In this document: positions 4,533 to 64,000 of the stretch, one piece after another
Position numbering within the stretch: position 1 is the first letter of the stretch
Layout: every line of letters starts with the position of its first letter
Notes under the pieces: generated by a model
The model's database searches: none
What the model saw: the letters and a program-made list of their open reading frames with translations, nothing else
What the model was told of the DNA's origin: nothing
Position numbers and translations under genes: made by a program
Origin: Selaginella moellendorffii
Lineage: Eukaryota > Plantae > Lycopodiophyta
Direction: 5' to 3'
NCBI RefSeq assembly: GCF_000143415.4
Contig: NW_003314270.1
Coordinates: 395,961 to 459,960 of the forward strand
Length of the DNA stretch: 64,000 nucleotides

Positions 4533-4569
4533 ATATATATAAAATTTCAAATGTATAATGTTTATAAAT

Positions 4570-5800
<1,231 letters not shown>

Positions 5801-6162
5801 ATCATACTCCCTTATTTAAAAGTGCTATTGGCATATACCATCTGGTGTCTTTTATTCCATTTTGAGAATATGATTTGTGAATATACTTATAATCTAACAG
5901 TTCAAATTCAAAAACTTCAAATAGATGGCATAGATCACTTCAATTTCATTTGAATGACACTCTAAATCAAGTGAAAATTTGTAAAGTGATTAGGCAGATT
6001 GTGAGCTACACTCTGTGTGTGTGTGTGTGTGTGTGTTCTTCTTACTGAGATGAGAAGGGTAAGTGATGTTTACTTCCTCTTTGTCTTATTTTTCTTGTTG
6101 ATACTGGTTTTTTTTCTAATATGACAGTTCATGTATCTAGCTGTCCTCTACATTTTATATAG

Positions 6163-28208: not shown

Positions 28209-29358
28209 ACTATAAATTTAATTGATTTACCTCATTATGTTTGGCAGCAGCCTTTAAGCACTGTTAAAGCACCAAAAAGCATGACAAAGAGCATTTTTTA
28301 TTTAAACAGACTAATTTACTTTGTAATTGTATATGATACAAAATTGAGCTTCAAAGAAATGTATAGTATACTACTATAATGTTATGGCCAAAATGATATT
28401 GTTAAATTAGTATTTTAAAAAACTAGAGTTCTTGTGAATCTAGAGAGCAATAGAAAACACAAAAAGATGGGAAGTGGAAGGAGAAAGGAAGGGAATGTTC
28501 TTTTCTAAGAGTGTATTTAAATGTGTAAACTTAATAAAACAAGATATCATATTTAAGCAGATAGTACAACGAATAACATATATCTATATTTAATTCTGGA
28601 TTTACATAAGCTGTATAAAATATAGAACCCACTTGTGTATTCCTACCAGAAGGCAATGAGTGTTATAAAAATCTGATAAAAATTGAAGGTAAAATATCCA
28701 TATTTATTTGCATTAGAAGTGCTCCATTATCTCCATAATCCTCATAATGAAATATTTTTTGAGATAGAAAAATATGAAAAAGTAATTAATATGAAAAATG
28801 TATATTTCATTTATGAGAATGATTAGTATTTGTGATGCAATATTAATTGGATGGATTATTCAATCAAATCAAACAATCCATTTTGTATATATGATACTAT
28901 TTAGTATTGACATATTAATTTATAAATAAATCATCCAGTATTATAAAAGAAAAAATATAACATAAGTGGAGATGTTAATCACTCAGGATGCCTGGCGTGA
29001 TTTCCTACACTAGTACACCGACTTATACCTAAAGTGCACTACGGATCACATCTTAAGAATCTAGTTTCTTTGAACTGCCAAGTCTTTTTATTTGACAAGT
29101 TTGTAATCATGTATAAACTCTTCAATGCTTGGCCTCATAAACCACCCCTTTTGAAGTTAATATTTTCAATTAGGATCTTTGTTCCCCCCGACTTGCAAAT
29201 CTTACTTAGCAAGTCACTTGATTAGCATAACATAGTTTTATACAAAAGTGTGAAAGTCTTTAACTATCAACTTTCATTTAAAGCCATTTTTTCGAACACT
29301 CAGGAACTAGTTTCTTAACTTTAATAGTTTCACCTTATAGCAAACTTCAAGACCATTC

Positions 29359-35300: not shown

Positions 35301-36921
35301 GTGGAACTCCCAATGAAGTGCTCGAGGAACGAGCACGAAGCGAGCAAAAGGCGAGGCTCCAAAAAGGGACCCAAAAGGACCAACACATGACACGTGGGAG
35401 TGTCCGAGATGGACTCGAGTTGGAGTCCGAAGTGGAGTCCGAGGTGGACCCGAGATGGACCCGAGTTGGAGTCCGAAGTGGAGTCCGAGATGGACCCGAG
35501 ATGGAGTCCGAGATGGAGTCTGAGATGGAGTCCGAGGTGGACCCGAGATGGACCCGAGTTGGAGTCCGAAGTGGAGTCCGAGATGGACCCGAGATGGAGT
35601 CCGAGATGGAGTCCGAGATGGAGTCCAAGGTGGACCCGAGATGGACCCGAAATGGAGTCCGAGATGGAGTCCGAGATGGAGTCCGAGATGGAGTCCGAGA
35701 TGGACCCGAGATGGACCCGAGATGGAGTCCGAGATGGAGTCTGAGATGGAGTCCGAGATGGAGTCCGAAGTCGAGACCGAGACCGGGACCGAGACCGAGA
35801 CCGAGACCGAGATCGGGACTGAGACCGAGACCGAGGCCAAGGCCGAGACCGAGCCCGAGCCTGAGTCCGAGTCCGAATCCGAATCCGAGTTCGAGTCCGA
35901 GTCCGAGTCCGAGTCTGGAGCCTGAGAGGGTGAAAGCCCAAAGCGTTCGTCTCCCAGACCCTGGGGGGTTTGGTGAGCTCCAAAAGTATAGTAGGGGGAG
36001 GACTGCAGTGGAGCCAGTTTGGCCAGGAAAGGCCAGTTTGGCCCAGGAAGGCCGGACCCAGTGTTGGGTGATGAGCTGCCCACTGGGAAGTCCAAGACTA
36101 GAGTGAACACGGACCGACAAGCGGGGTAGCTTGGTGAAGTGTTCAAGAGCCGGCTCTAGTTCCCCCGGGAGATCGTCTGGCCGATGCTCCCAGTCCAAGT
36201 GTGGGTGGCACTACCTACTTGGATACCAGGCGTGGCTCAACAGAACCTCGCTCTAAGCCCATGGCTAGAGCACCTAAAGGCGATAGGTGGGGAGAGTACC
36301 CAGGTGGCTCGCGTAAGGCCACGGTGTTCCGAAATGTTGTCCCAAAGGCCCAGACTGTGGAAAGGAAGAGGAGCAGTCCTCTGGGGTAGTGACCAAGGAC
36401 ACAGTCATGTGGTGAGGAAGTCCCAGGGGACCGTGGGACTTAGTGGTCGGGCCTGTGGGCCTCGATCCAGTGGCAGTGTTGGCAAACACAGCCAGGGGCA
36501 GAAAGGGACCTGGTAGGAACTGAGAAAGGGACTTTGGGGAAGGCAATTCCCCAGGTCTGTGGGCATCCTAAGGATGCTAAGGAGTGGATCTAGGATGACC
36601 ACTCGTGGACAGATGGCCCAGTCTTGGAGAGACGGGATTGTGATGCAAGTGGTATTGGACCACTAGTGCAGCAAAGGTGAATGGGCATGGCCTTAGCGTA
36701 ACGGGCCGAGATGTCAGTGGTACCTTTGGGTGTCGGTCTTGGGACTGGACACGTGGAGCACTTGGACCAGGTGCAAGTGTTGAATGGCATGGATGCCATT
36801 CTTGGGGCTAGCAAGTCCCAAGTCCTGAATTGGACTTATAGAGGTTGTGAATGAGACTCCTCCAAATGGTCGGAGGCATGGTTAAGTGATTAAAGTAGAA
36901 TGGAAAAATTAGTCGCTTACA
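29359..36921 (+). mobile_element. Complete, very young non-autonomous LTR element (LARD, family B), 7563 bp
   Basis: LTRs 29359-31109 and 35171-36921 (1751 bp each, near-identical). PBS TGGTATCGGAGC (tRNA-Met), PPT ATGGGTGGTGGAGT, perfect TSD CATTC. The 4.06-kb interior has no ORF much above 100 aa. Confidence 0.95.
29590..30105. repeat. Minisatellite inside the B LTR (GAGATGGAGTCC / GAGATGGACCC, then GAGACC/GAGTCC hexamers)
   Basis: Seen directly. Repeated in every B LTR (about 19030-19810, 24060-24340, 35400-35915, 40040-40390, 63810-64000). Confidence 0.95.
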
Positions 36922-43700: not shown

Positions 43701-46700
43701 ATGGCAAAGGTAGAGCGGAAACGAACCAAGGCGGAGACGGAACCTCCCCCAGAGCTAGAGCCTTCGGTCGAACAAGAGGCTATGGATGAGGAATCCTTGT
43801 ATGAAGAGGACTCTAGTGAGGAAACTTCCAAACAAGAGTCCGGTGGTGAGGTTCGGTCGTCCAAGGCTCGATTAGACATTCTAGAAGGACAATTGGCATA
43901 GACCAATGCCTTGCTGGAGACTCTCGTATGCAAGCTAAAGCGTGACAAGAAGCGGAAGAAAAGGCAAAAGACTGTAGATGCTGGCAATGCAGAAGGTGCA
44001 GACCCTTTGGCAGGGACTGAGGCAAAATTAAACAAGGTCGAATAAACCGAAGTGAAATCAGTCCCTCAGACAGTTCCCAAATACAAACCAAAGCCCCCAC
44101 CAGTCTTCAAGGGAGTGAATGACTATAAGGTGGTGGAGGATTAGTTTTACGATATGGAGGACTACTTCTAAGCTTGGTAACTGAGTCCCATGTGGTTACC
44201 AAGTGCTGGTCCCATGTGCAAAACCATACTTGGCAGATAATGCCAAGTCTTGGTGGAGAACGACAGAGGCCAACAAAGGACAGGTGGCCACTTGGGAAAT
44301 GATGAAGGCGAAGATCCGCGTGACTTACATTCCTCTGAATGCTACTCTGCATCTAAGAGACGAGCTGAGTAGGCTGAAGCAGACCGGAACCATTCAGGAT
44401 TATGTGAATGGGTTTATAGCAAAGAGGATACTTGTCACGGACATGGGGGATATGGATGCGTTTCATGCCTTCATATCAGGCTTGCAAACCTGGGCTCGCG
44501 GTAAGGTGATGCGTTGGAACTCGACCAACTACAAGGAAGCATTGGATGCGGCCATCAAGGTGCATTTCAACGATAACCTGCGAAAGGGGAACAGAACAGG
44601 GTCGGGGTCCATGTTTAACAAAGGGGCCAAACCAAGGGGAACATATAGCAAAGGGAAATTCAAGAAGAGTTTCTCTAAGAATGAGTCCTCGGGGTTCCGA
44701 AAAGGCAAATCTAGCAACTAGCGAACAAGTATGTGGGGGAGTCAAGCAAAAAGAGATAAACCCACGGATAAGAAGGTCAAGTCGGTTAGTAACGTGAGAA
44801 ATAACGTATGCTACAACTGCGGTGAAACGAGACACTTTTCAAGGGAATGTCCCTACCCGAAGAAGGCCAGAGCCAATACGGCCATTAAGTCAGGTAAAAT
44901 CCAAACTGAGGTATGTGATTTAGTCCTAGCTCAAAGTTACTCATTACATGAACAACTTTGGTAAAGAGCCATTCGCGACATCTACTAGCCCTTTGAGGGA
45001 AGCTCGGAGGTAGCTTTGTTAAGATCCTTATTGACACGGGTGTTTCAGATAATTTTGTGACTGCAGACATAGTCCGGCAAGCCGGACTAATGGTGTAGCG
45101 GCTGGGCGAACCAAGAACTATAGAGTTTGTTCAAGGTAGCCAAAGCACCGATGAGGTACTTTGACAAGCAAGAGTCGAAGTAGGGACATGGAAAGTAAAC
45201 ATGGATTTCACCGTGTTGGACATGGCGGGATTTGACGTGATCTTCAGGATTGATTGGTTCAATCAGTTCATGGTAGCCCTGCATGGATAAGGTAGGAACC
45301 TTGTGGTATTAGCGAATGCCCAAAGAAGAAGGTCTAGGGTGGAGGCCCAGGATCTAAAGGTAAGGCAATGCAAGGCCAAAGATTCCTGCCTAAATCTGGT
45401 GTTCACGAGAGGACAACTCACTAAAGGAACCAAGACAGCATTTTTGTGCTTACTCTTGGTGAAGAGTAACAAAAAGATTGGAATGAAAGAAGTATCTTTA
45501 GCGATCCAGTGGGTGTTGGACGAATTCTAGGATACCATGCCAGAGGAGCTACCGGCGGGGTTGCCCCCCACATGATCGATAAAACATAAGATTGAGCTGG
45601 TCGAGGGTGTTGAGGTGGTGGTTCGTCCCCCTTATCGTTTGAACAAAAAAGAACTCAAGGAGCTCAAGCACCAACTAGAGGAGTTGGTGGACAAAGGATA
45701 TGTTAAGTTGAGCAAGCCGCTATATGGGGCACTGGTGTTATTTGTGAAAAAGAAAGATGGATCTATACGCATGTGCATAGACTACCAATTGCTCAACAAG
45801 TATACAAAGAAGAACAAGTACCCTTTGCCAAGGATTGAGGACCTGTTCGATAGGTTGGGAAAGGTAAAATACTTCTCGAAGATTGACTTAAGGTCAGGAT
45901 ACTACCAGATTAGGGTAGCAGAGGAAGATGTCGAGAAGACAACCTGTCAAACAAGGTATGGGAGCTTTGAGTTTCTGGTGATGCCCTTTGGGCTATGTAA
46001 TGCACTGACAACGTTTTCGGCATTGATGAACCACATCTTTGTACCCTATCTGGATCACTTTATGGTCGTCTATATTAATGACATCCTGATCTATAGCAAA
46101 ACGCTAGAGGAGCATGTTGAACACTTGACGAAGGTGTTTGAGAAACCAAAGGAACACCAGCTGTATGCTAAAGAGAGCAAATGTGACTTTGCTCAACAAG
46201 AGGTAAAGTTTCTCAGGCATGTAGTGGGCAAGGACGAGCTCAAGGTGGACCCTAAGAAGGTCCAAGCGATCTAGGATTGGGAGCGACCATTGAATATAAA
46301 CGAGTTAAGGGCATTCTTGGGGCTATGCAACTACTACCGAAAGTTTATCAAACACTATTCCAGAGTAGCCCTACCCTTAATGGACTAAACGTGAAAAGGG
46401 AGGATGGTATGGATAGCAGAATGCGAGGCGGCATTTGTCCACCTCAAAGGGAAGTTGAGGAAGGCTCTCGTATTGGCATTACTAGACTTTGGTAAAGACT
46501 TTGAGGTAGAAACAGATGCTTCAGACTTTCTGTTGGGTGCAGTTTTGAAGTAAGACAACCATCCAATATTGTTCTTCTCGAAGAAGTTGGACAAGGCTCA
46601 ACGGAAGTGGCCTACCTATGAGAAGGAATTTTTTGTGGTGGTCAAGGCACTCAAGGAGTGGCGACATTACCTTGGGAGACACTTCAAGGTTTACACGGAT

Positions 46701-47508
46701 AATGTGGCAATGAAACACTTCTTGTTAGAGCCCGACCTGAGAGGGAAACAGGGTCGGTGGGCCAATGCTTTGGCCGAGTTTGATTGCAAGATTCTATACA
46801 AGCCTGGGAAGAGCAACATCGTGGTGGATGCGCTAAGTCGAAAAGCGAGCTTGAAGTTGGCGATATCCAGCGTGATAGCAACCTTTTGGGATGATGTGTA
46901 GACAGCATATGAGAATGATGGTCTAGCACAAGAAGTGTTGTTGAGGAATCTCGAGGCATGTGAAGCTCACTAGAGAAGTGAGCTGCCAACGAAAGAGAAA
47001 ACAGGCTATGTGAAACGTAATAGACTCCTCTATTACAAGCAAACGAGGGTGTATGTTCTAGAAGGGGAACTAAGGAAGGTAACCTTAGAAGAGTGTCATG
47101 ACAGACCTTTTGCGGGACATGGTGGAGTGCCCAAGACAATGGGCTTACTCAAAAGGAAGTACCATTGGCCAAATGTGGCTAAGGACATCCAAGACTATGT
47201 AAAAACATGTCTAACATGTCAGTATGTCAAAGCCGTGACTAAGGCTAGTGGGGGCTTGTTACAAAGCATCCCAATTCTAGACCATTCGTGGAAATGTCTT
47301 ACGATGGACTTCATCACGGGACTCCCCCCAAGTGAGGGGTTTGATGCGATATTCGTGGTAGTGGACCGATTTTCGAAGATGGCACATTTCATACCCACCA
47401 CAACGGAAGTGGATGTGGAAGGTGTGGCAAAGCTATTCTTCGAATAAGTGGTTCAAGTGCGGGGAAGGCCAGAGGAGATCATCTCAGATCAAGTTAAGAT
47501 CTTCACTA
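43701..47508 (+). pseudogene. gag-pol of family C with stops and frameshifts; integrase cut by the DNA transposon
   Basis: Gag LKQTGTIQDY, zinc knuckle [39 protein letters not shown]...MPFGL...VYINDIL, RH ETDASD...EFFVVV, IN HDRPFAGH...CLTCQ...TMDFITGLP...VVDRFSKMAHF...IISD. Confidence 0.93.
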
Positions 47509-47950
47509 AAGCTCTATTTCGTTAAAGTGTGAATTGTCATTATCCCACTTGTAAAATAAGGTTTCCAAACCTTTATATAGTATATAAATATAACAAAATT
47601 CAACTGCATTGAGGCACATGCCATTTTATTTTAAACAAGGAAATGTCTACTCAATCACTTCTCCTCCCCCTGCCACTGCTTCACCTCTCTCTTCTCCTTG
47701 TCATCGTCGTCCAATTTCTTTCCATCCTTTTAATATTGGCTCAGTTGCTCCGAGTCTAGGTGGAGCCCAAGTCCCCATTCAATCTTTACTTTCCCATTAT
47801 TAATAAAACAACTTCGTAGACTTCCAATAACATGCTGTAACACTTCTAGTATAATGCAAATCCTCTCAAAGAATTGTCTTTTAATATTAATACAATGGCA
47901 TGGAACCCCATGCCATAATAAGTTACATTTTTAAATAAATACATGCCATC

Positions 47951-50900
47951 TCAGACTGTTATTTTTTGCCTCCAACGCCTATACAATAATCTTGGAATTT
48001 CATCACTCTCCACACTATCAGGATTTAAACCCAATAGTAATGCCATCTCTTCTCTAATACGTCCACGCTCATGTTCAGTGGTCGAAGAACCCATCCGGTT
48101 GAGCAGATTATGGAGATGCGGATAGTGCTTGACTAGACAATATACATGCCATAAATGATGACTGGTGTCTGTCCGATCAAATGGCTTCTGATATACCGTT
48201 CCATCTGCCATTTGGTTGATTTTTGCAGCCACCTCCTGGACTGGCCGGTTCTCTATCACCATCGCTCCAAGCCGTTTTGCAAGGTCCCCCAGAACATACG
48301 GTTTCTTCTCCCTAGTTTCCATACTGCAAGAGATGGGGTGCACTGCATATGTGTGCGTGTTCGCTGCAGTTTTAATCGGCGAGTCATCGATGATGAGGAT
48401 TTCACTTGAGCTAGCAGTCCGGTTCATCACTACAGCCTCTGGCTTGACGAAGATGGGCTTGCTACCCCTCACATGGACCATAGTCAAGCAATCCTCCTGC
48501 GTTAGGAGAAAGTCAAATGGTAATATTACTCGCGTCTGATCGTGCATCATCTGTAGCAACGTTAATGCATTGTGGCGCATCATGGATGTCCAAACTCCCA
48601 ATTGCAAATTGAACCCGGCCCTCTGTTTTAAGTGTCGCATGGTCATTATTAGATCCCGCAGTTTCTCCCGTGTGATTAATGTGAATCTGTCTCTTTTGAC
48701 CAACTTGCGACCGCAGGCTTTGGAGGGTGCAATGACATTCGAGGACGAGCCACGCTCATGGGAGAAAAGGACACCGTTCAGATCAAAAACGATACAGTAC
48801 CTTCGCCGTGACTCTGAAATGAAATGCGTCAACATAAAAAATGGTACAAGTCAATTTTACCATCTACAATATTAGCGAATGTTGCTCCCGATGGTCGTTG
48901 AGAGGGTTTTGGTCGAGGAAACGTGAAGGGCGGAAATACTCTCCTCTGCAATGTGGGGTCAATCGCATCCGATGGCGTGTGGGCACATGCCATTTCAGCT
49001 GTAGACTCTGGTACAACTGGCTCAACAGTGGCATGGGGTGGTTCCGATGGCGTGTGATCACACGCCATTTCAGCTGGTGCCTCCGTTGGCAAAGTGGACA
49101 TGACCGAACAGGCAGCAGGGGCGGTGTAGGGAGGTTCCAACGGCGTGTAGTCAGACGATTGGGCACACGTTGGATCCGTTGGAAATGAGGATACGACCGG
49201 CTCGGCAGCTGGGGCGGCCTCATGCGGGTCCAATGGCGCCTGGTCACCGTCAGTTGGATACGTGGACAAGATTGACTCAGTGGTATGGGCAGCATCAAGT
49301 GGAGTGTGGTCAGCTTGTTTGGCGTTGATATGGATAGTAGCCTCCACCAGCTCTGATGACTCTTGCAGGCAAGTAGAGTCCACTGGCGGATCCATATGCA
49401 TGTCCAAATATCTCCCTTCGATTGAGATGGTATCCTCCCTACTGGCTACTAAAAACAAACTCATTAGCACATTGAATCGACTATACTGTATTTACCATCA
49501 ACTGCTATTGAGGAACTAGGATCGATATCACTTGGGCGCACTGCTGATTCTGAAGGATTGGACATACGTTTCGACCCTTGCTTGGCACTATCCTTCCTCG
49601 ACACTAAAGGCTAGAGTTTGTAAATTCAACTGAATAATCTCTACTTACCATTTGCTCTGCGACCTACATGGACAATGTTAGAAATGGTAAAAGGTTAGGA
49701 ATGGATGTACTATTATTTACCTGATGGTTTGTCTTGTATGACCTTCCTCCGCTGCTCTTTGGCCACCTCAGGCTGGCCATCGTCGTCATCATCGTCGTCG
49801 TCGTTATTGTGATCATCACCATTGTGAGGACCATCCATGTCCTCTTCGTCCTCCTCTTCTTTGTCCTCCTCTTCGTCCTTCTGCTCTTCCTGCTCATTAT
49901 CTTTCTCTGGCTCCTCATCCCCCTCCTGCATTTCTTCCATAGGCTGCTCAGGCTGGATGGCTTGTTCTTCCAGGACCATCTTGGGAAAATCATTTGGCCG
50001 AGTCTCCATCTCAAAATACAAGACATCCATAGCCTGTTTTAGTGTGTGACCTAGGACCGTATCTTCACCCGACTGTCTTAACATGGTTTTTCCACGTTCT
50101 TGCACCCTTCGAAGACGACGAGATGAGAAAAACGTGGCCCTGACTTGAAAAGCATCCCTCATCCATTGTACCTCTCCATTGAGATTGGGGAAGGGGAGTC
50201 CGCCATAGGAATCTGAGTCAGGAGGTGGTGACTGGCTGCTTTCACTCAGCCCTTGATCTGCAATGAATGGCATGAGCACACACGCCATAACCGCAAGGCA
50301 TTGCCTATCATCTTTTCGTTGCCCTTCTTCCTTTTCGAATCAAACGCCTCTGATCCCGACGACTGTCCAACGTGCTTTCGCTTTTTATGACCACTGTCAG
50401 TTTGAGCTTGATCTGCAAGAAATGGCATGAGGACCCACGCAATAACCATGACGCTTTACTTCCCGTCCTTGGTGGCTCTGTCGTGCCTTCCGCATCCTCA
50501 GGTGCCTGCTCCTCAATTCCCTTTCGCTTTCGTTTCTTATGCGCCCGTTCTACAGAAATAGCATGAGGACATACGCGATAAGCATCACAAATGCTTTTAC
50601 CCTTCCTCCTCTGCCCTGGTCGGTTGTCCATCTCTTTGTCTACAGCGTCTGAAAGCTGTTTTGCAGGTAGCCTAATTCGAGGTTCACGACGTCTCCTTTG
50701 CACTTGAACTATATATTATTGCATCAACACATGCAACATCCCATAATATTTTTAAGTTACCTTTCATAAAGTTTTCCATTGGTTCAACTCGTTCCCCTGA
50801 AATACAAACTTAGATAAGTGCATGGGGCCATATGTCATGATTGTACCTGTTTCGGAACTCTCCTTATCACTCTCCGAGGCCTCCCCCTCCTCCACTGGAG

Positions 50901-53900
50901 GCACGTTGTTCCGTTCGATTTCCTTGACGCGATCTGCAAGAACATTAGTTAATTGCATGGGGCCACATGCCATCAAACCTTCAGGTTCTTGTCGTGAGGT
51001 CTACGCTGCTTGCCCTAGTCTCTTTGGAATTTGAGCTGCAAAAAGCAATGGCATGAGAATTCACGTATAACAAAAATGATTGGTACCTCTCGTCCGTTGT
51101 ACTTGGCTGGTGCTTGCCTGTTTTGCCTTTGAAGAAGTGTCTCCTGCAAGGAATGGCATGAGACCACACGCCATTGCAAATATAATTTGTACCTCCTTTT
51201 TTCCTATTGCTTGTTTGTTTGTCCTTCTTTGATTCGCCACCAGTGCGCTTTTCAGTCCTCGTGTCTGAATATTCACAACGATCATGATGGCGTGAGGCCT
51301 CACGTGACCTTACCTTGTGCAGGTTGTGAGCTCGGCCCAACATGGGTATCTTTAACAGTAGCTGTTAACGCCGTTTCAGCATCTGGGGGTGGCCACGCTC
51401 CTTCATACAGAGCTTGTGAGATAACATTTAAACTTAAAGTGCGTACTCACCATGTTCGTAGAGAGGATACTGTTTTTCTTTGGCAACTGTAATTATATGC
51501 TCCATTGAAGTCACCTCTTCAATGGAGTTTGTCACCGCAACACAGGGGACACCCTTGAGTAGTGCGGCTCGAAAGAATGGTCCGCCACAGTTGTACTCGA
51601 CAACGCATTTGCCCTTGGAGTCGGAAGTAGGTGACCCACCCGCTATTGCGTTGAAGACCCAACTGAGCATTTCCCATGCTGCATCTGGAGCTTTCTCTGG
51701 ATTCGAAAGCTCCATAGCCGTCTTCAATTCCTCAGGCACAGGTAAATTGACCTCCCTCAGATCAATTCGATCGGCCTTGTCGAACAAAGCTGGGAAGTCA
51801 CTCCAGTCCCACTCTGCTACAGGACCAATAACAACGGCAAGTGTGAAGATGTGGACATTCGTCGGTATCTTCTTCTTAGCCATTATCCCATGGATCTCCT
51901 GCATCTCCTTGCCTTTCAAACGAGCCTTCACCTCGTTCAAGGCCTTCTAGAACTTGTGATAGGATTTGGAGTCATAGATCATATAGTGGACTGAAGATTC
52001 CACCTCCGCAAGTCCCACCATTAAGTCAATGATGGAGCTGACTTCGTCTGCATGAGTGATCTCCTCATTTGTGAAGTCCATCACACAAAAGATGTTCTTG
52101 ACCTGCTCATCTCCACGGGAAACGATGCTCCTCCACCTTTGATCCTCATCCGAATTCACGTATACCCGGTAAGGTTCTCGATAGGCCTCTGCTGCAGGGT
52201 CGAGCTGTTTCTGAAGCCGGCGGTCGACATCCCTCTTAATGAAATTTGGATACTGATCCAACTTCTCAGCTTTACTTTTCATGGCATCCCGCAGCAGATC
52301 GATGAACTTGGGGGCCCCCTTCATGTACTCGTCGATGTCTTCATTTGACAACTCCAGCTCTTCCATCATCTCTTGCGTGGTGTCGATGCTCACCCTCTCC
52401 ACAGCCACTTGCTCGAAGATCCAATCCTTCAATAGCGCACGAGCTCTCAGAGTCGTGCACAAGTCCTCGTATGTCACAATATGGCCGGGAGTCATTTTGG
52501 TCTTGTTGAAGACTACCTCACCACGTAGAAGAGCATTAGCCACTGTCAGAAGGTCGTCGTCGTCTAGAGACCGCAAGAAACGCAAGGCGTTAAGCTTCAA
52601 ATCATTGGGCTTCCGGCCGTCCTCCACACCCATTGAGTTTAGCAACTCCCCGTCATGGTACCTCCTCAGCACATCTACCCATTTGTCAAAAACAACTTTT
52701 GTCGCGAGTAGAATGTTATGGATGCTGAGTGTGTCATTGACCCCCAGTGTTTTCAAGAGAAGACTCGAGAATTCCTGCAATGGAAATGGCGTGAGGCCAC
52801 ATGCTATGCCACATGCAACGAGGCTTACCTGCCAAGCGCTAGTTGCTAGTGCACGTCCTTGTGCTGGTTTTTGTGGCTTCTTCAGTTGAACCCAAAGCTT
52901 CCGTGTTCGTGCCAATGTCTCATGCAGACCCGATTTGTAGCACGTTTCTTGCTTGACATTCTACGCGTGGGAGATGTATATGATAGATCGGAGGGGCGAG
53001 TTGCCTTTTATCAGGCGAACAACTCTTGTCTTGAAGACTTTCTTCACCTCCTCGCCTACCATAATATCCACAACTATCTCTTGCATCGCCAAGCTAGAAT
53101 ACTGCTCGGAGACGGCATAGAACCGGATGTTCTGATCGTCCAACACCTTCCTATTGATCAAGTCTGGAAACCTTGTCTCGCCCTTCATTGTTCGGTAGTA
53201 GGGGATCACGTCTGCGATGTCAGGTGTTACTGGACTTGCCAGCATCTTCTGCTTCAGTTTCTCCACCCACTCATCAGATACTAGCCTATGGTTGTATTTG
53301 CTTTGGATGTCGATGTGGCTCACGTCGATTATATATACTTTGTTGGAATAGTAACAAGTACTATTATATGCGACGATTTTTGCTGCCTCTTCTTGCTCTT
53401 TTTGCTCTTTGCGGCTCTTCTTTTTGGTGGGTGTAGTGTTCGAACCCGAGGCAATGGCATCACCGAGTAACTTCTTTTTTGGAGCAGGAGAGTCGGACGT
53501 CGGCTTGAGCTTGACCACCCTTTTCTGCTTCGGGGTAGTTTCCAGATCGACCCCCTTCCCCTTCACTTTGCGAACTAGAGTCACTCTCAACGGCTCAATG
53601 TTGGAATATAGTTTTTGAACATTGCCGTAGGTGAGGTCCGTGGATTCCATGTGATCTTCATAGACCCGCAGCGTCTTTGAAATTATGGGCCTCCTGGACA
53701 ACCTCTCCCTAGCTCCCTCTAGGAATTCCTCATAGCCGCTGCCCCCCTCCGGGAAGCCGCTAGGATGTGCAAGGTGGATCTTGAAGGCGGATGCTATCTC
53801 TACCACAAGTGCCAGTCCATATTCTTGCATGGAACTGCATGGAGTGTCTGTCACTTGGATGAGGATCCCCATGCATTCTTTTCTCCCACCATCTATGTTG

Positions 53901-54249
53901 TACAGCCTTAGATCCTTGTCTTCCATCCCGAAAGTCCAACTGGTGAGCTCCTCCCCCTTCTCTGCATCCACATTGACAGTGGCTGGAAGAAGAACGCAAT
54001 TCCTCGCCTGTTCAGAAATGCACAACAATTAGAGCTGACAGATGAAAAGCTAGCAGCTGGAAATAACGTGAGGCCACACACCATTCACCACTGCATCAGA
54101 TGTCTTGAGGCTGCATCCTAAGATGGTGTGAGGCTACACGCCATCTGTAACCGGACTGCACTCGAGAGCCCAATCGGTGCATGCCAATGTTGCTACTGAA
54201 TGGCATGTGGCCTCATGCCATTTTCTACTTGGCCTAAAAGACTTACCAT
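47951..54249 (-). pseudogene. 17-exon cargo gene (1772 codons, 3 in-frame TAG): ParB-like domain, degenerate DNA N6A/N4C methyltransferase fold, disordered linker, FCP1/NIF-like HAD phosphatase
   Basis: ATG at 54249-54247. Introns 54008-54246, 52775-52828, 51401-51450, 51265-51313, 51144-51192, 51036-51086, 50934-50978, 50797-50846, 50709-50760, 50550-50600, 50413-50459, 50258-50304 (GC-AG), 49664-49720, 49604-49648, 49449-49495, 48814-48860. Removing them (980 nt) leaves 5319 nt in one frame. Stops at 52961-52963, 51947-51949, 51001-51003. HAD motifs IVFDLNGVL, GVWTS, FVKP, IIDDSPIK are strong; the ParB and MTase calls are weaker, by-eye matches. Confidence 0.8.
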
Positions 54250-54902
54250 TTGAAGCCGAATGGAGGCGTGACAATCGAGGCTGGACTCGCTGGCGAATGT
54301 GCACTGTGTGTGCAGCGGATCGTAGCAGCAAGGCTACTCTGCCACTTACAGTTGGAGAGTGGCGCTGAAATCTCCCTAGACGCCAAGTGGGCTGCGTGTG
54401 GGTGGCGGAGTGGGCGGCGGAGTTGGTGACGAAGTTACAAACTGGGTGTGTCTTGAAGTGGACGCCGATGCACACGAGTGCGATGCGAGCGCGAGTGTGA
54501 TGCAAGCGCGAGTGGACGCCGATGCACACGAGAAACCTGTAGAGAAGGTAGATAAGCGCGAATGTGAGCGTGATTGCGAGTGGGAGCGCGATGCGAGCGC
54601 GAGTACGAAGCAAAATGCAAAACCTAACCTCACACGCGCGAAATGTCACGACAGTTGGTAATCCCGCAACGTCATCATTCCTCGGACTTGGGTGCCACCA
54701 TTAATTTCTGGATCGCCGCGCGCATGCATGCACGTGAAATCCAAAAGAAATCCGCAACGTCATCATTCCTCGGACTGCATGCACGTGAAATCCAAAAGAA
54801 AGATCATGATTGGGATATCATTTAATACCCTCGCTATATTTATACCATGCATGATTGGATATTCCAAAGCATCTTGTATTTCCAAAAATGCCATATGTTC
54901 AA

Positions 54903-56432
54903 AGAATGGTATACAATGTCCTTCTTGATGACCCTGCAAAGAAGGATCTCGATCGGACACCACATGAGACCACACGAGCCTTACAATGTTTCAGGGGCAT
55001 TTGCCATAGATCCGACCGTTATTTTGCTCCAAGATTCTACAATTTGGTGTGCATTGACCTTTCCATCGACACTACAAAGGGACATCACAATCAGATGCAG
55101 GATCACAAGAAACCAACTTCACTAACTCTGGTTTCACCAAGATCTACGTAAGGAGTTATGAAATGAAAGGACCCTCTCTATTGAAATGTGTTTATGGTCC
55201 TAGGGGCATTGTGACATATCAAAGGATTTTGCATCAAGTTCTGTATTTGCATGTTTATCAAGCTACTGAATTGCTAAACCCTAAACCCTCCCTAAATATG
55301 TGGCAAATGCTGCGTGAAAAAAGATGCCCTTTCTGGGCAAATGCTGTAAGAGGCAAATGCCGAGCAGTTACACGGCGAATAATCTTGGCGCGGATTGCTG
55401 ACATGGCATGGCAAAGTTCGAATCACTGACATGGCACAGCTGGATCGAGGCAAGGACATGATGTGACAAAGTTCAACGTCCGACAGCAAAGTCTAGAAGC
55501 TACTCAGTTTGAAATTTGTCAGAGGAATTATAAGATCTGGTTTGTCAGAGGATTTGATGTGACGTTCAAGCGTGTGGGCTCATGCAATTTTGATCCCAAA
55601 AGATGCACCAAAAAATGCTCGGCATCATCTGGCGTTGGCGTGGGGCCGCATGCCATTTTCAGGGGCACATAGGAGTATATTCCTAGAATATTCTAACATG
55701 CGCGAGATTTTTTTGAGTTTTCTGGAGATCCAACCCTTAGATCACAACTAGATTTTACAGAATGGTATACAATGTCCTTCTTGATGACCCTGCAAAGAAG
55801 CATCTCGATCGGACACCACATGAGACCACACGAGCCTTACAATATTTCAGGGGCATCTGCCATAGATCCGACCGTTATTTTGCTCCAAGATTTTACAGTT
55901 TGGTGTGCATTGACCTTTTCATCGACACTGCAAAGGGACATCACAATCAGATGCAGGATCACAAGAAACCAACTTCACTAACTCTGGTTTCACCAAGATC
56001 TACGTAAGGAGTTATGAAATGAAAGGACCCTCTCTATTGAAATGTGTTTATGGTTCTAGGGGCATTGTGACATATCAAAGGATTTTGCATCAAGTTCTGT
56101 ATTTGCATGTTTATCAAGCTACTGAATTGCTAAACCCTAAACCCTCCCTAAATATGTGGCAAATGCTGCGTGAAAAAAGATGCCCTTTCTGGGCAAATGC
56201 TGTAAGAGGCAAATGTCGAGTAGTTACACGGCGAATAATCTTGGCGCGGATTGCTGACATGGCATGGCAAAGTTCGAATCACTGACATGGCACAGCTGGA
56301 TCGAGGCAAGGACATGATGTGACAAAGTTCAACGTCCGACAGCAAAGTCTAGAAGCTACTCAGTTTGAAATTTGTCAGAGGAATCATAAGATCTGGTTTG
56401 TCAGAGGATTTGATGTGACGTTCAAGCGTGTG
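54903..56432. repeat. Near-identical 674-bp direct duplication (54903-55576 and 55759-56432) between the two divergent transposon genes
   Basis: Both copies run AGAATGGTATACAATG...TTCAAGCGTGTG with offset 856. The ORF track shows duplicated ORFs with few substitutions. Confidence 0.93.
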
Positions 56433-56865
56433 TTATTTTTGAATTCTCAAACTCATTCCTAGGTCTATCATTTTTGTGCGTCGTGTTCTTGGTTCCACTG
56501 AGCACAGTGAGCGCTGCTTGTGTAAGCGGCGTTGTGAGCTGTGGTTTATGCATCTACGAGCGGTTGTGGCATTGCGAGCACCATTGCGAGCGGCAGTTTA
56601 TGCGAGTGGCAGTTTGTGCGAGCGGCGCTACGAGCAGTTGCGGTGGTGCGAGCGGCGCTACGGTACCACTAATGGTATGAGGGCTCATGCCATCTTGGGG
56701 CTTGCAAGTTCATCACTAGCATATTGCTAATAGTTTCTTTACCTGCCTATAGCTGTGTGTTTATCAAGATGGTATGAGGGCTCATGCCATCTTGGGGCTT
56801 GCAAGTTCATCACTAGCATATTGCTAATAGTTTCTTTACCTGCCTATAGCTGTGTGTTTATCAAG

Positions 56866-57045
56866 ATGGCATGAGGCCTCATTCCATCTTTGGCCCCTGC
56901 TAGCCTATTGCCATATTCTTTTTGCCTTGCTGCAACTGTATGGGTGACTAGTCACGCACACAAAAATATATACAGTTGCAGCAAGGCAAAAGGAATATAG
57001 CAACAGGCTAGCAGGGGCCAAAGATAGCGTGAGGCCTCATGCCAT
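56866..57045. repeat. Long hairpin (~76-bp arms, ~28-nt loop) capped by palindrome copies and preceded by a 97-bp tandem repeat (56672-56865)
   Basis: ATGGCATGAGGCCTCA...TTTGGCCCCTGCTAGCCT...GCCTTGCTGCAACTGTAT pairs with ATACAGTTGCAGCAAGGC...AGGCTAGCAGGGGCCAAA...TGAGGCCTCATGCCAT. Confidence 0.92.
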
Positions 57046-57232
57046 TAGTGGTACCACTAATGGCATGAGGGCTCATGCCAATTTTGTGAATGCGAAATTT
57101 CACGTGGGTGTCAATAGCATGTTTGAATAATGGTATGTGGCCTCATGCTATTGAGGTTGTTTGGTATGTTATGATTTAGGCCATTCTCCAATCATTTTTT
57201 GTATGGTCTTAACTTCTTTTCTACACTTTCAG

Positions 57233-60059
57233 AATAGCCTCCGCAAGTGCAACGCATGTTCCCTCCGTGGATCTTAAGAACCGTGCTAAATGGATTCAGG
57301 CAAAGGTGTTTCTAAACAACCCCGAGGGGGAGGTGGTAGCTGAGGGCTTAGCCACAGTTGTCGATCCAAGAGATGCGGTTGCTAATCAAGAATTAGGCTG
57401 GGATGATATTAGAGTTGCGATTTTAGAGGTTGTTGACACAGAAGAAAACAGTCTGACTATTGGAAGCATTGTGCGGTGGAAATTGAGGCACTTAGTGTTT
57501 GAGAATGTGAAGGATTCACAATCAAACACCACTACAACTGATGACAGAACATCTCTTCATGGGAAAAGAAAGTACACCTTCCTAAAGCGCAGCCAAAGGG
57601 ATCTAAGCAACGAACTGAAAAGGCAGAAAATGGCGATGGAGGTTCAAATGGTCTCGACAGTTGCTTGTTGCAAGAGGAGGTGCTGTCAACATGCTGATTG
57701 GGATGTTATTGAAGAGGAGAGAGCAAGATACAAGACATTGTCCTGGAAGGCAGCTCGCAATTTTGTGTATGAGGCATTACGGTCATCTGTTGATGCTTCA
57801 GAACATCAGGTGGGGGGCATGGTCTTCCAGAGGGGTTTGGTCTGCATGAAGGCATGGAGAATCATTTATGGAGTCCCTCGAACCACATTCTACAGAATCA
57901 AAACTGAGTTCGAGGAACAAAGGGTTCAACAGGCAGTCCATGGGAACGACGGTACTCACAAAACCAGGGGTCATGTTATATATGGAGAGGCAATCTTCAA
58001 GAGGTTTGTCGAGACATATAGCAAGCAACAACCACATAAAACCCGCCTCTTGGAAGATGGAACACGAGACACCCAACGAGTTCTCCCTTCCATGTATACC
58101 AAGGGGGCCATATTGGAAGATATGAATCGGGAACTCCAGAGTAATGGCTACAGGAAGCTGAGCCAATCTAGATTTAGTAGATTGTGGAGCAACAGGTTCA
58201 GGGATGTGAGTATAGGAAAGTACTCCAGCTTTTCAAAGTGTGACGAGTGCACTGCTATCAAAATGGCTTTGTCGAAGAATTCTTGCATCGCTCAAGAGCG
58301 AGAGACGTTGGTTAGAAGGCGGCTCGACCACAACATCGAGCAGAGAAGCTGCAGGACTGCATATTATCATAACAGGATTCTCTCCATGGAGAGACCTGAC
58401 TCTTACCTCTGCATCATCCATGACAAAATGGACCAGAAAAAGACGTGCTTACCTCGACTCAATCCTGCCCCCAAGGTAATCTCTTCATCCATGCAGCTGC
58501 CTGTGTCTCTGTTTGGCATAATCGCTCATGGGCATGGTGCCCAGAACTATGGGAACTTCTTTGTACCTCTATGGGGTGGCGGGGGTGCAAACATGATGAT
58601 TGCGTCCCTAGCAAAACACTTAAGGTCTTTGCAAAGTGCGCAGACTGAGCTGAACGGCCAACCCTTGCATAACGCCCTTGTCGATCGAACCCCATACAGG
58701 GTTCAGCTAGAGGAGGAGCAAAGGCTTGCAGTATCGCGTGGGGCCCCATGCCATCCCAGTGAATATGTTGGCCGTCAGATTGTAGGGTTATCACGTGAGG
58801 CCTCATGCCATTCCGACGAGGCTAGTCGCCCGGTGAATGCACAGCCTCATCCAAATGAAGCAGAATCTCAAGGAAGTTCTTGCGGCCGATGTGGCCATCC
58901 ACCCCATCTTCTGCTCCAAACAGACAATGCTGGCAGTGAGAACAAAAACATGTACGTCTTTGCGTACTTGGCGATGCTTGTTGCCAAAGGCATATTTGAA
59001 ATGGTTACACTTGGCTTTCTCATGGTTGGGCACACTCATGAAGACGTCGATGCCATGTTCAATCACCTGGCAGAGTCCCTCCGGCGATCCAATGTCCTCA
59101 CCCTCCCACAACTCTACGATGAATTCCAAAATTGCATCAAAGGCACTGTTGAAGCTGCACTTGTGACAGAGGTTCCAGACTTTAAGGGGTTTGTAAAAGG
59201 CTACATCAGGGACGGATCCGAAACGCTGATTGGCCACTCCAAGCCTCTTCAGTTTCATTTCAGCATGCATGACGGTGCTCCAGTGATGAGGTACAAGATG
59301 AGAGAATGGGACACAGTGTGGCTGCCAGTGGACGGCATTGAACTCTTCAAGAGAGATCCCATAACTGGGGAACCTATGATTCCTCAGGGTTCCCCACGGC
59401 CGATGCACCCGGATGGACTCAAAGACCAGGAAAGTATAGTGGCCGGGATTAGATAGCATATTGCCTTCTGGAAGAGGGGGTTGGTGTTTGGTGGAGAATC
59501 CTATTTTAAGAGGTGCAAGCCTTTGCTTGAATACTGGGAGAAGATTATATCTGCTATCCAAAATGGGCCAGTTGTATATGAAGAATTGGAAGAGTCCTTT
59601 TGGCTAGAACCCAGAGCACCAGATAGTAGCGGAACAATGTCCTCTAGAAATGCAGTGACAGATAACGATGTTGAGGATCACTATTGTGGGCCGAGGAACA
59701 AGAAGCCGGATTCAACATTCAATCCAGTACAGGTCTACAAAGGAATGGTCCTGCTTGTCTGACCCAGTAATAAAAAACAAATGATATGGGTGGGGCGCTG
59801 CATCACTGATGCAGAGGAGGACGCGGAAACTAACTCCTTCAATGTAACTGTGGAGTGGTTCAAACCAAGTTCCGGATATACGAAGGATTGCCTAGAAAAG
59901 AGATGGGTGCTGAATCCAAGGGATCCCAGCATGAGCATATCGGTGGATAATGTTGTGCATGGTTGGATGCGGAAGCAGAGTGCCACCATTACCTTGCCAG
60001 ACCATGCAAGAGATGCAGCAAGAGCATTTATAACCCGGGTTCAAGGTGAGATTCATTAA
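57233..60059 (+). pseudogene. Sola-type DDD transposase (~930 aa) with two in-frame stops
   Basis: ORFs 57267-59456, 59481-59762 and 59781-60059 share one frame (TAG 59454-59456, TGA 59760-59762). Motifs: CCKRRC...VCMKAW..IYGV, FSKCDEC (CxxC...H), IIHDKMDQ, LQTDNAGSENKN, FLMVGHTHEDVDAMF. Splice acceptor at 57232, so the true start is probably in an upstream exon. Confidence 0.85.
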
Positions 60060-62290
60060 TATTCCTTTACTAAGTTTCTAATGTATTTTATTTCAAGGTG
60101 AACAATCCGAATCTGAATCAGAGGAGGCGTGATGGCATGTGGCCTTACGCCATTCCTAGGTGAGATGATACAAATAACAAGTATAAATTCTTAGTTGTTC
60201 TAGCAAATCTTACTTAAAGTTCAAGGTGAACAAGCCGAATATGAATTCATCGGATTGTTATAACAAATTGTGAGGTGATGGCATGAGGCGATATGCCATT
60301 TGAGAGTGGTAGCCATTCCTATATAAGGTGAGTGAAATATTTATTAGAAATACCTCATTCAATTGTGCACTTCTAAGTCTTGGTCCACTTAGCATTGTTT
60401 GCATGTTTCTATTTTAATTCTTTCTCTAAAATGTTATTTAGCATGTGGCTTCATGCCATTGCTCTCCACAATCATACATTGAATTTTTCTATCCTTGCAT
60501 AATACTTCTCCATATATATAGCATGTGTGCACATGTGATATGGTTCATTAGGCCTGATATAGTGTGTGAGGTAAAACAAAGATGATGTGACATATGCATT
60601 TACCAATCACACGTGCATAAATCTAATAATATGGCGTGTGGCCCATATTAATGGCACATAAACCCATATTGTGGGCTTACGTGCTTTATGTACCATCATT
60701 CCCTTGCAGCGTGTGTGTTGGTTTCCTTTTATAACACAACGAACTCCATATTTTAGGTGAAGAGCATTCTCATGGCAAGCACAAAATCTATAAGTGAGGC
60801 AGAAAAGGAGACGGAGAAGGAAATAGGTGAAGATGTAGAATATATAAGTCTTCCAAACTCCCCGTACTATACTCTAGGTGATCATTTTTCTGAACAAACG
60901 GCAACATTAACAACTATCGAGAACGCCCCAGTAACGTCAGAGACAACAATCCAAAGCAAAACAACTGACCCGGAGAAGGATGATAGTACCGCTGAGAGTA
61001 CCAAAAAGGAGGTGTCCACTAGCGCTTAGGCTTATAATGGCGTGTGCCCTCATGCCATTTACTTGATCACCAAATACCTTTTTCCTTTGCACTAGTATAT
61101 CTTAATACCGGTCTGAGAAAATAGAATGGCATGTGCCCTCAGGCCTTTTACTAAATCACCTTTGAAAGAAATGCAAGCCTCTATGTCGTAAAAAAAAGGT
61201 ACTAGAGAAATTCCTTAATAATATGAATGTTATTTAGTTTCATGAAAATACACTAAGGGTCAAATGAGTTAAATGACTTCTCCAGACTAGCAATGCCTCT
61301 TGCTACACCTTCACAATTAGATTCGTTAGAAAAAGATAACATTGAATAATATCTAAATGTTCTCACCATTAAGTTATATGTCTGGCTAATAGGAATGACG
61401 TTCATCTTGGAAAGCTCACCACACGCTCAATGAACAAACAAATAGTGTGTGCGTGCATGCCATTGCTCTTCTTTAGCTTCAGATTCGGCTTGTTCACCTT
61501 GACAATGAGATTTATTATACAACCAGATGGACTCAGTCTGGACACAAAGTCACCGCGCTAGTCACCATGCCCCAGATATGTCTAGCCCCTAGACAAAAAA
61601 CATATAATTTCACGTCATTTTCAAATACTTGAAAATTTGTACCTAGTCCCATTTTACTGAATAAATCCCACTTTAACAAAATAGAGCTTACAAGGACACT
61701 ATAAGCCACAAATTTTTCCTTTTCTACAAGGGGTTCCAAAAGTATAGTAGGGATAGTGAGGTCCAGGAACCAGTCTTGAAGGAACTCTCCAATGGTGCTT
61801 CCAAACTGACTTGAGGTTGAGACTAGGACTGAAGGGCCTTGGGTGGGAGTGAGCATAGACTTGGGTGGTGCTGGAGGGGCCACCCAAGGAAGTGCTCAAG
61901 AGCAGCTCCCACTCCCAAAAGGGAAATCGACTACAGTGCTCCCGGCTCATGTGGAGTGGTGCCCCACTTGAGTACCTTGTGGCTCATTGGTCCTCACCCT
62001 TCCTAGGGGCTTGAGCCTTCCCTTCGGGATAGAAGTGGGAGGGTAGAGGTACCCATACCGGGCCGTTAGACCACGGTGTTTTGTCCCGGTGTCCCGAAGC
62101 AAGTGTTGCACCCAAGGCTTGGGATTTAAAGGGTCCCATGATCAAGTTTTGTTGTACCAAAGGATGTTAGGAACTTGGAGGCTTAGTGTGCTTGGCTACT
62201 TGTGCCTGCGGGGAGTGTAGCCGAACCTTAAGTCTAGTCTAACCCGGGGAGGGGGATTGGGAGAGATTTGGGAATCTGTGAATGGGTGGC

Positions 62291-63435
62291 TGTCGCGAAT
62301 GTGACTTCGGGTATCGAAAGTTACCTGTCGACTAGTCCTTACGGACACTCTTACCTTACTGCCACGATGGCAGGAGGTCGGTATTGCTGGTTCCCTTTAT
62401 CAGTCCCTCTTGTGCTAGTGGAGTTAACTGGGCATTTCGAGTGTACTTAGACCGGATGAGCATAAGGACGGAATTTCTACATGTTATTAGCTAAGTATAC
62501 TTAGCCCGGTAAGGAGTTCCCGTCTCGTTTTGTCTTGCACTTGCTAGTGACAAGAACCCTTGCGTATTAAGATTGGTCCCTCAATATTGTTGGATGATAG
62601 CTTACCGTGTCTGCCAAACACCCTTGCTATCATGCCCTTTGTGTTAGTCTTATTTCGGTTCCAAATACTATTTATGGAAAGTGTCTAGATTTGCTCATTT
62701 GGCATATTTACAGAATGTAGAGATCAACCTGAACACAATGGTGTTCGTCCCGTGTTCAAATTCGCAATCTAATGCCATTCCATATTTAGTAAGTTTCGAG
62801 TTTGTCCTAGAGACTAACTCCTGATACTAAGGAAGGCTTGGGGTGAAAGCCCAAAGCGTGTGTTCCTCAAGGGGGGGGGGGGGGGGGGGTTCCAAATGTA
62901 TAGTAGGGATAATGGGTAGGTCGGGCATGGCCGACAAACCTGAGACATAGTTTAGCTCCCGCTTGCGTTCCTGTCCTTGTTCTGTGTCCGGCTTGGGTTT
63001 AAGCCCAAGTTCCATTCCATGCTAATTGGTGGAGTACCCATGTCTTCGTGTTAGGCCACCGGTATGCCGAAATAGCACCATACTCTATTTGGCTCCATTT
63101 TGCGTGCTGGTCCTAGCATTGGGATGTTGGTTACTCTAGGACTGTTCCAAGTTGCTCTCGGCTCCTGTCCCTTTGCTCCTTGGGCTTTATGCTCGGGAGT
63201 TGCTCTGTGGTTTAGTTCCATCACTCCTTGGCTTCGTGCTTGGGAGTTTGGCACCATTCCTTTGTTCAGTGGCCCAAGGCCCTGAACCTCGGGTTCCTAT
63301 GGACACGTGGCATGGACAAGTGGCATGTGACATGTGGCATCTGTCACGTGGCACAAAGAGGGTTAGGTTCCGCTTCGTGGTGTTATCCTATGGTAAATCA
63401 CCATAGGATAAAGGGTCAAAACCACGTGCGCTACA
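62291..63435 (+). mobile_element. Solo LTR of family A inserted in the C 3' LTR
   Basis: TGTCGCG...GCGCTACA, 1145 bp, perfect TSD GTGGC. The C LTR sequence rejoins across it. Confidence 0.93.
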
Positions 63436-63705
63436 GTGGCTAACGCTCCATTGCTCGTGTAATGAGTAGCTGAAATCAAGTAAGACCAAGTAGGAGTTGG
63501 TACAATAGACAGGAACCTTGGCGAGGGAACTTAGCAAAAACCAAGGCAGTGTTGGTCAGATAGATGAGGTAAGCTAGCAAATTGGAAACGAAAAATTTGT
63601 GGCTTACATTCGGGTCTATCTCATACTTCATCTTCAGTCCATTTTGGACTCCATCTCGGGTCCATCTCTTATCCATACCAGACTCCATCTTGAACTCCAT
63701 CTCAA

Positions 63706-64000
63706 TGTGAGACACAAAATCCCTAGGCCCCAAAGTGGAGCCAAAAGGGCGCCACATGGTAGTGGCCGAAGCGAAAGCCAAACGAGCGTAACACGTTTGG
63801 ACTAAAAGATGGAGTCCGAGATGGATCCGAGATGGACCCGAGATGGATTCCGAGATGGAGTTCGAGATGGATCCGAGATGGACCCGAGATGGAGTCCGAC
63901 ATAGAGTCCGAGATGGACCCGAGATGGAGTCCAAGATGGAGTCCAAGATGGACCCGAGATGGAGTCCGAGATGGAGTCTGAGAGATGGAGTCCGAGATGG
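63706..64000 (+). mobile_element. Start of another family B LTR (runs off the window)
   Basis: TGTGAGACACAAAATCCCTAGG as at 29359, with an internal deletion before the minisatellite. Confidence 0.88.

Follow-up and report, generated by a model that had tools for sequence, protein, structure and literature searches.

Why should the very short introns predicted in a plant transposon gene hold, one after the other, a copy of the same palindrome? The question is raised by a stretch of 64,000 nucleotides of Selaginella moellendorffii (NCBI RefSeq assembly GCF_000143415.4, contig NW_003314270.1, positions 395,961 to 459,960 of the forward strand; the whole stretch is called the window, and positions are counted from its first letter). 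The window contains a DNA transposon of 14.2 kb with imperfect terminal inverted repeats of 35 bp and two divergent genes, that is, a transposase-like gene matching DUF7869 (E 6.8e-41, Pfam scan) and an accessory gene with the introns in question. The 22-bp palindrome, with the consensus ATGGCRTGWGGCCWCAYGCCAT, is probably recognized as double-stranded DNA by a dimeric protein of the element, multiplied where the element has noncoding room, and in six micro-introns its CTCAY would double as the branch point.

Distribution and Symmetry of the Palindrome

With up to five mismatches allowed, the palindrome has 33 sites in the window, 31 of them within 47509-61689. The 49.8 kb outside the element hold only two weak sites, and five shuffles of the window gave none. 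Within the element 27 of the 31 copies are noncoding; the remaining four are coding, even though coding sequence makes up 58% of the element (p 3e-7). Twenty of the 31 are located outside the introns of the accessory gene, and the palindrome is not intron-specific.

The dyad symmetry continues through the center of the palindrome, where the pairing of a hairpin is impossible. In detail, 57 of 62 half-sites retain G10 and C13, which are too close to each other for such pairing, and the letters at positions 6/17 and 9/14 change independently of one another.

Predicted Introns of the Accessory Gene

When the 16 predicted introns are removed, a single 1,772-codon frame remains, interrupted by three TAG stops. 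Fourteen consecutive introns are of phase 1, and the length of each exon between them is divisible by three. Of the stops, only the one at 51003 is among the differences listed, and other copies of the element do not have it. Among the indels listed, those that are not multiples of three fall in introns or in the untranslated region (UTR): 1 nt at 50585 (intron 50550..50600) is absent from other long-form copies, 7 nt are added in most copies beside the palindrome at 51283/6 (intron 51265..51313), and there are +4 at 49622 and +1 at 54266. The coding indels are in frame (-15 at 51622, -3 at 49440-44 and a loss of 695 nt). With GT/GC-AG ends, a branch-like motif and an open frame after removal, these segments have the features of spliceosomal introns, and their splicing is well supported by the DNA, namely by the frame, the indels among copies and the branch-like motif.

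The sequence-only reading had described nine introns of 45-54 nt with one palindrome each. All nine lie at the acceptor ends given there and within that range of length, and eight hold copies with one to four mismatches; the exception is 51086-51036, whose copy is half-decayed (seven mismatches). The degenerate copy in the intron at 50709 (nine mismatches) and the three copies in the 239-nt first intron were found as described. The description has to be corrected in that five other short introns of the accessory gene are without palindrome and 20 of the 31 palindromes are outside the introns of this gene; it also had missed that most copies of the element are without six of the introns.

Overlap of the Palindrome with the Predicted Branch Point

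The motif yTnAy with its A located 15-19 nt from the 3′ end is found in 14 of the 15 short introns, compared with a mean of 2.2 and a maximum of 8 in 5,000 shuffles and with 1 of 59 exonic YAG decoys. For six introns (52828, 51192, 51086, 50600, 50459, and 50304) the sole branch-like motif at this distance is the CTCAY of the palindrome, and for 51313 the only branch candidate is also within the palindrome, at 29 nt. Introns 50978 and 50846, with the palindrome at their 5′ end and CCCAT in place of CTCAY, have a separate motif at 16-19 nt, as do all five palindrome-free introns. T at position 14 of the palindrome is present in all seven dependent introns and in 19 of 40 half-sites outside introns (Fisher p 0.012).

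It went unnoticed in the sequence-only reading that six introns have their predicted branch point within the palindrome itself. Since CTCAY is placed at 15-19 nt, the palindrome, about 9 nt and CAG together resemble a complete 3′ splice module, and one short word would serve both as a protein-binding site and as a splice signal.

Copies without Six of the Introns

Copies of the element are mostly 95-99% alike. The joint 50406-51102, which marks the absence of a 695-nt segment with six introns, has a depth of 93-99 against 5-7 for the long form in low-coverage runs, and summed depths from deeper runs place the long form near 1%, that is, about 93-99% of the copies are without the six introns. 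The 4-nt microhomology at the joint suggests a deletion from a long ancestor. As to the presence and absence of introns among copies, proposed earlier as a check, the six introns are missing together and in frame, and no precise intron-loss joint exists among the joints listed (15 of 40; 15 of 304).

Palindromes of Related Transposons

Related transposases are present at 287 loci, of which the best 80 were scanned. The palindrome of the window is essentially absent from them (three single matches with five mismatches). Six other recurring palindromes were found among the relatives, with up to 10 copies per locus, and none of these was found in the element of the window. In a transposase-core tree of 24 rows (4 of 28 chosen rows were dropped for short matches), each palindrome type is on one side of one branch, with six changes for seven types. 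In one palindrome scan, about 10 of 21 loci, most of them short, showed nothing above the null.

Relatives keep their palindromes mainly in the flanks. An AT-rich group has a transposase intron which the window gene is without. Of 25 distinct loci, 11 have the palindrome of the group within this intron, and 1 of the 25 has it in the exon sequence next to the intron; the loci stem from 48 segments reduced to 26 distinct ones, one of them without the intron, and the copies are related and decayed. In some relatives tandem palindrome arrays with a period of about 46-47 nt are formed (L017:49-353, L055:5541-6362, and L030:410-1006), close to the pattern of the VANDAL elements discussed below. Terminal repeats of the relatives were not clearly found.

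The mostly noncoding distribution and the lineage-specific palindromes of the relatives make a double-stranded DNA site for an element-encoded dimer the most likely nature of the palindrome. The earlier proposal of binding sites inside a coding region is therefore, judged from the few coding copies, the dyad through the center and the palindromes of relatives, still the best reading. The binder is most likely the transposase and possibly the accessory protein. No clear accessory gene was detected by tblastn beside the 80 related transposases (four weak matches, E 0.001-0.005; many loci are short or decayed), which weakly indicates the transposase as the reader.

Explanations for the Palindromic Introns

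If the palindrome is a DNA site of the element, its dimeric protein would dock on the copies along the element, and by analogy with the proteins VANC and TnpA of other plant transposons this recruitment may serve self-recognition or anti-silencing. The likely history would start from the ready-made 3′ splice module. A lineage whose introns are about 50 nt long could have duplicated such modules along with phase-1 exons of the low-complexity region and then spliced them out, adding sites with the protein frame unchanged.

Several observations weigh against this explanation. T7 and A16 are invariant in 62 of 62 half-sites, intronic or not, so that their conservation is no evidence of splicing. 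The distance range of 15-19 nt was picked after inspection of the data, and some of the six introns may be derived from others among them; thus, the p values overstate independence. No spliced reads were found, two raw RNA runs (same species label, about 12% of each) having no read of the accessory gene, and splicing is inferred from the single frame, the placement of indels and the branch-like motif in the DNA, not observed. RNA-run matches to the window were only partial, from rRNA and low-complexity transcripts. Copies without the 695 nt outnumber the long form about 15-fold or more, which shows that the full array is dispensable for amplification and makes it less likely that each intronic site is vital. 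Pfam and fold searches identified no DNA-binding domain in the transposase or the accessory protein, and a host factor may be the binder. As for the relatives, 14 of 25 transposase introns are without a significant palindrome, the palindrome label of L005 is weak (3 matches, null up to 3), and the window transposase is not grouped with the GTGGCCAC clade despite a similar palindrome core. Moreover, kin share palindrome labels, so the tree shows lineage specificity and not co-evolution. Contigs of run X20 cross introns 48860 and 54246 unspliced; this run is RNA only by guess, perhaps DNA, and it was used neither way.

The palindrome could be a site of an element protein and its intronic copies a mere by-product, if tandem exon+intron duplication multiplied a single intron with a palindrome and the branch overlap is an accident of this ancestral intron. 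The run of 14 phase-1 introns with exons that are all multiples of three fits this, as do one adjacent trio, the likeness of units 50239-50315 and 50394-50470 (71% identical over 77 nt), the fact that most copies have lost six introns in frame, and the like turnover of exon/intron repeats in VANC genes (PMC5735166). Nevertheless, none of 45 exon pairs is alike at p<0.05 (best 0.055), and with the palindrome masked only 5 of 28 pairs among eight introns show flank likeness (p<0.05, uncorrected). The palindrome is kept while the flanks diverge, has two different positions and is also present in the phase-0 intron 52828, with A16 at -18. Tandem duplication, raised in the sequence-only reading, fits the phases and the trio, finds no significant likeness between exons, and appears unlikely as the full account. 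The same comparison, which answers the question of full-length intron likeness in the negative, since likeness is mostly confined to the palindrome, also makes very improbable an introner-like unit, mobile and giving rise to introns by its insertion into genes. In its favor, many tiny introns have a palindromic core and similar 3′ ends in common, but the flanks are mostly unlike, the lengths differ, the palindrome is offset by 5-21 nt from the 5′ end, nearly all introns are of one phase, no precise loss joint is among those listed, and the rest of the window outside the element has hardly any palindrome.

An RNA hairpin, in which the palindrome of the pre-mRNA hides the branch point and regulates the splicing of the element's own gene, had also been proposed. 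A16 is indeed within the 3′ arm, an arm pairing of 8 bp is formed when introns 51192 (-14.5 kcal/mol) and 50304 (-17.3 kcal/mol) are folded, and G-U is slightly above A-C in intronic copies (9 vs 7 of 99 arm positions). On the other hand, of the 10 short introns with a palindrome a single one folds below z -2, pairing is impossible at 22 of 99 arm positions, and dyad conservation extends to the letters of the loop. Moreover, 20 of the 31 palindromes of the element are outside these introns, and those of relatives are mainly in the flanks. Given the kept G10/C13, the independent variation of positions 6/17 and 9/14 and the single folding intron, a double-stranded dyad fits better than an RNA stem, and regulation by a hairpin seems quite improbable. 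There is hardly any probability left for a site of a host transcription or chromatin factor recruited by the element. It would agree with the missing DNA-binding domain and with the GGCC-centered core that recurs in a separate clade; however, seven palindromes track transposase lineages, as would be expected of a reader that is encoded by the element and changes with it rather than of a conserved host factor, and dyads of 16-30 bp are long for sites of such factors. A bolder form of the explanation by an element-encoded reader is that an operator-intron module (palindrome, about 9 nt, AG) spread in the gene, that selection for the DNA site created new spliceosomal introns, that occupancy or a hairpin is coupled to splicing, and that DUF7869 elements at large are a further plant family with lineage-specific self-recognition palindromes. 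This can be put forward only tentatively and is on the whole doubtful.

Structure of the Element and Its Genes

Features of the element are collected in table 1. Both inverted repeats start with AAGCTC; the letters CACTA are found just outside the left repeat and not the right one, the element ends being uncertain. No target-site duplication was found, and the sequences flanking the repeats do not match (the ends of this copy may be rearranged). The whole element is deeply covered in DNA sequencing runs. The window copy shows signs of decay, that is, a C-to-T bias, stops and an internal deletion. Where other copies differ from it, the change is mostly A>G or T>C as read on the plus strand (DNA run X4: 220 of about 290 places), as expected if the window copy decayed by cytosine deamination.

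The left end is adjoined by a decayed gypsy-like pol sequence (44185-47490) and the right end by other high-copy repeats (61700-64000); these flanks do not form two halves of one target. Gypsy neighbors and plant-type telomere letters indicate a plant as the likely host. Between the divergent genes there is an 856-nt tandem duplication (54898-56430, 97% alike), with uneven depth, which may be limited to some copies. A small palindrome-bearing unit is located twice in tandem after the transposase gene (60091-60310) and once inverted near the right end (61436-61512). Elsewhere in the window, 4467-5953, 29347-30398, and 35108-36210 are low-complexity and open in several frames; the same open reading frame pattern at 29.3-30.4 and 35.1-36.2 kb suggests a duplicated repeat.

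DUF7869 is the sole Pfam match of the transposase, with no Mutator-type, TnpA or TnpD family. Sixteen relatives at 29-95% identity were aligned, and the alignment keeps the acidic motifs HDKMDQ, DN..ENKN, and GHTHEDxD. Relative to other copies, at least 414 nt are missing at 57241. The putative intron upstream of the gene has six palindromes (56672-57130), a 97-nt tandem unit and an inverted repeat with 76-nt arms. These arms (56866-57045) are 92% complementary around a 28-nt loop, with palindromes on both sides, and could give small RNAs; Rfam gave only sub-threshold matches to miRNA families and hairpins at 56.8-57.1 kb.

The accessory protein includes a long charged low-complexity region, assembled from small exons, and a C-terminal NIF (HAD) domain, which was the only match above the cut-off in a Pfam scan of four parts of the protein, with the small-exon region outside the scan. 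Language-model searches gave a ParB/DUF3723-like lead (0.96) and an N6_N4 methyltransferase-like lead (0.92; atlas cluster with PF01555 on 54% of its members). The methyltransferase-like part had no Pfam match, and its predicted structure (pLDDT 65) no significant fold match; a second structure model (pLDDT 54) was likewise without significant match in fold searches. Homolog searches with the two large accessory exons gave no match, and a search of representative proteins gave five remote relatives, one likewise NIF-terminated, and one chance repeat protein. Two coding palindromes lie in a 75-nt tandem unit (48968-49083) and are read as EMAC(D/A)HTP. Upstream of the start codon, 40 nt (54313-54352) match an abundant transcript of the RNA runs, whose loose ends we take to be the 3′ end of a large-subunit rRNA, unconfirmed by Rfam; possibly, an rRNA fragment was captured in the 5′ UTR.

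Table 1. Features of the Element in the Window and of Related Loci
Feature	Position	Strand	Remarks
DNA transposon, whole	47509..61689	.	High copy; imperfect terminal inverted repeats; exact ends +/- ~15 nt
Left terminal inverted repeat	47509..47542	+	29/35 columns equal to right repeat
Right terminal inverted repeat	61655..61689	-
Accessory gene	47951..54249	-	Predicted 17 exons, 1,772 codons; three in-frame TAG in window copy
Intron 1	54008..54246	-	239 nt, phase 0; palindromes at 54063, 54123, 54200
Intron	52775..52828	-	54 nt, phase 0; palindrome CTCAC is branch-like motif at -18
Intron	51401..51450	-	50 nt, phase 1; no palindrome; own CTCAC at -17
Intron	51265..51313	-	49 nt; palindrome near 5′ end with sole yTnAy, at -29
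Intron	51144..51192	-	49 nt; palindrome CTCAT at -16
Intron	51036..51086	-	51 nt; half-decayed palindrome (7 mismatches), intact 3′ half is CTCAT at -19
Intron	50934..50978	-	45 nt; palindrome near 5′ end (CCCAT, not branch-like); separate TTAAC at -16
Intron	50797..50846	-	50 nt; palindrome near 5′ end (CCCAT); separate CTTAT at -19
Intron	50709..50760	-	52 nt; degenerate palindrome (9 mismatches); TTGAT at -16
Intron	50550..50600	-	51 nt; palindrome CTCAT at -15
Intron	50413..50459	-	47 nt; palindrome CTCAT at -16
Intron	50258..50304	-	47 nt, GC donor; palindrome CTCAT at -16
Four short introns without palindrome	49720-49664, 49648-49604, 49495-49449, 48860-48814	-	Phase 1; within span 48814..49720
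Two palindromes in accessory exon	48972, 49047	- (gene)	Within span 48814..49720
Segment absent from most copies	50407..51101	.	695 nt; six introns and 399 coding nt, in frame; 4-nt microhomology at joint
Putative upstream intron of transposase gene	56663..57233	+	From GT/AG only
DUF7869 (PF25273) transposase-like gene	57213..60133	+	Profile match; stops after 59453 in window copy
Two palindromes in transposase variable linker	58733, 58790	+ (gene)
Downstream noncoding palindrome cluster	60132..61465	+	60132, 60278, 60438, 60518, 61037, 61126 and weaker copies; partly in duplicated small units
Palindrome copies per relative locus	L001; L002-L004; L008/L012; L017/L042; L018		9; 2-4; 3-5; 10, 2-4; 7
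AT-rich group of relatives	L019-L080		Own palindrome

Comparison with Known Systems

The VANDAL elements of Arabidopsis are Mutator-like and have an anti-silencing system, DNA methylation being lowered by a motif-binding protein of the element. Their VANC proteins, with DUF1985/DUF287 domains, bind family-specific motifs in introns and other noncoding parts of the elements, and repeats and exon/intron structures turn over fast, with variable exon/intron tandem repeats (PMC5735166). The two systems agree in being large DNA transposons with an accessory gene and a family-specific motif in introns, intergenic and terminal noncoding DNA, and in differing among copies in motif number and exon/intron structure (here, presence or absence of the 695 nt). 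In contrast, the VANDAL motif is a 9-mer in one orientation, whereas here a 22-bp dyad is found, one per 50-nt intron and with predicted branch overlap. The accessory protein has ParB-like and methyltransferase-like leads and is NIF-terminated, with DUF1985/DUF287 unmatched in the four parts scanned, and the DUF7869 transposase has no Mutator-type match.

Spm/CACTA elements are characterized by CACTA termini, a short target-site duplication and TnpA/TnpD domains. The motifs on which TnpA and the AtMu1 transposase act are family-specific and clustered at the termini, with transposase-driven activation (bioRxiv 10.64898/2026.08.24.746577). Clustered family-specific motifs are common to these systems and the element of the window, and theirs are read by an element-encoded protein, sometimes the transposase itself. 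Their motifs are bound at the termini, whereas here sites are found throughout the element and its introns, and neither element protein matched a TnpA or Mutator Pfam family.

Sola elements produce a 4-bp target-site duplication, and we know of no second gene or dispersed palindromes in them. Terminal inverted repeats and acidic motifs like the three found here are also present in Sola-like DDE transposons. No target-site duplication was found at the ends of the window copy, which may be rearranged. According to PMC5751038, no Pfam model exists for Sola; a fold search gave no significant match. Introners and internally symmetrical fungal (stw)introns also include several short introns with a common symmetrical sequence. 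Introners show full-length likeness among introns, copies in many host genes, and precise presence or absence. Here, the likeness is mostly of the palindrome only, a single transposon gene is concerned, nearly all introns are of one phase, and the palindrome is commoner outside introns.

The available parts of PMC4738411, PMC5751038, and PMC6839031 describe no such element. In the literature outside subscription journals and Repbase, no paper was found that names DUF7869, and none that combines transposase binding-site palindromes within introns with a branch point. The element plausibly works like the VANDAL/VANC and TnpA systems; by its domains it is not a member of VANDAL/VANC, and Pfam gave no TnpA/TnpD match. 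Family-specific self-recognition motifs are of a known kind; new here would be the lineage-specific palindromes of DUF7869 elements packed in micro-introns, likely doubling as branch points.

Sequence-specific self-recognition by plant transposons has so far been elucidated for the VANDAL and Spm elements of Arabidopsis and maize. The DUF7869 family would be a third, unrelated one, and its seven distinct palindromes would offer matched pairs of protein and site for testing how specificity changes. The overlap of site and predicted branch point in introns of 50 nt would be a testable route by which binding sites may seed or shape introns.

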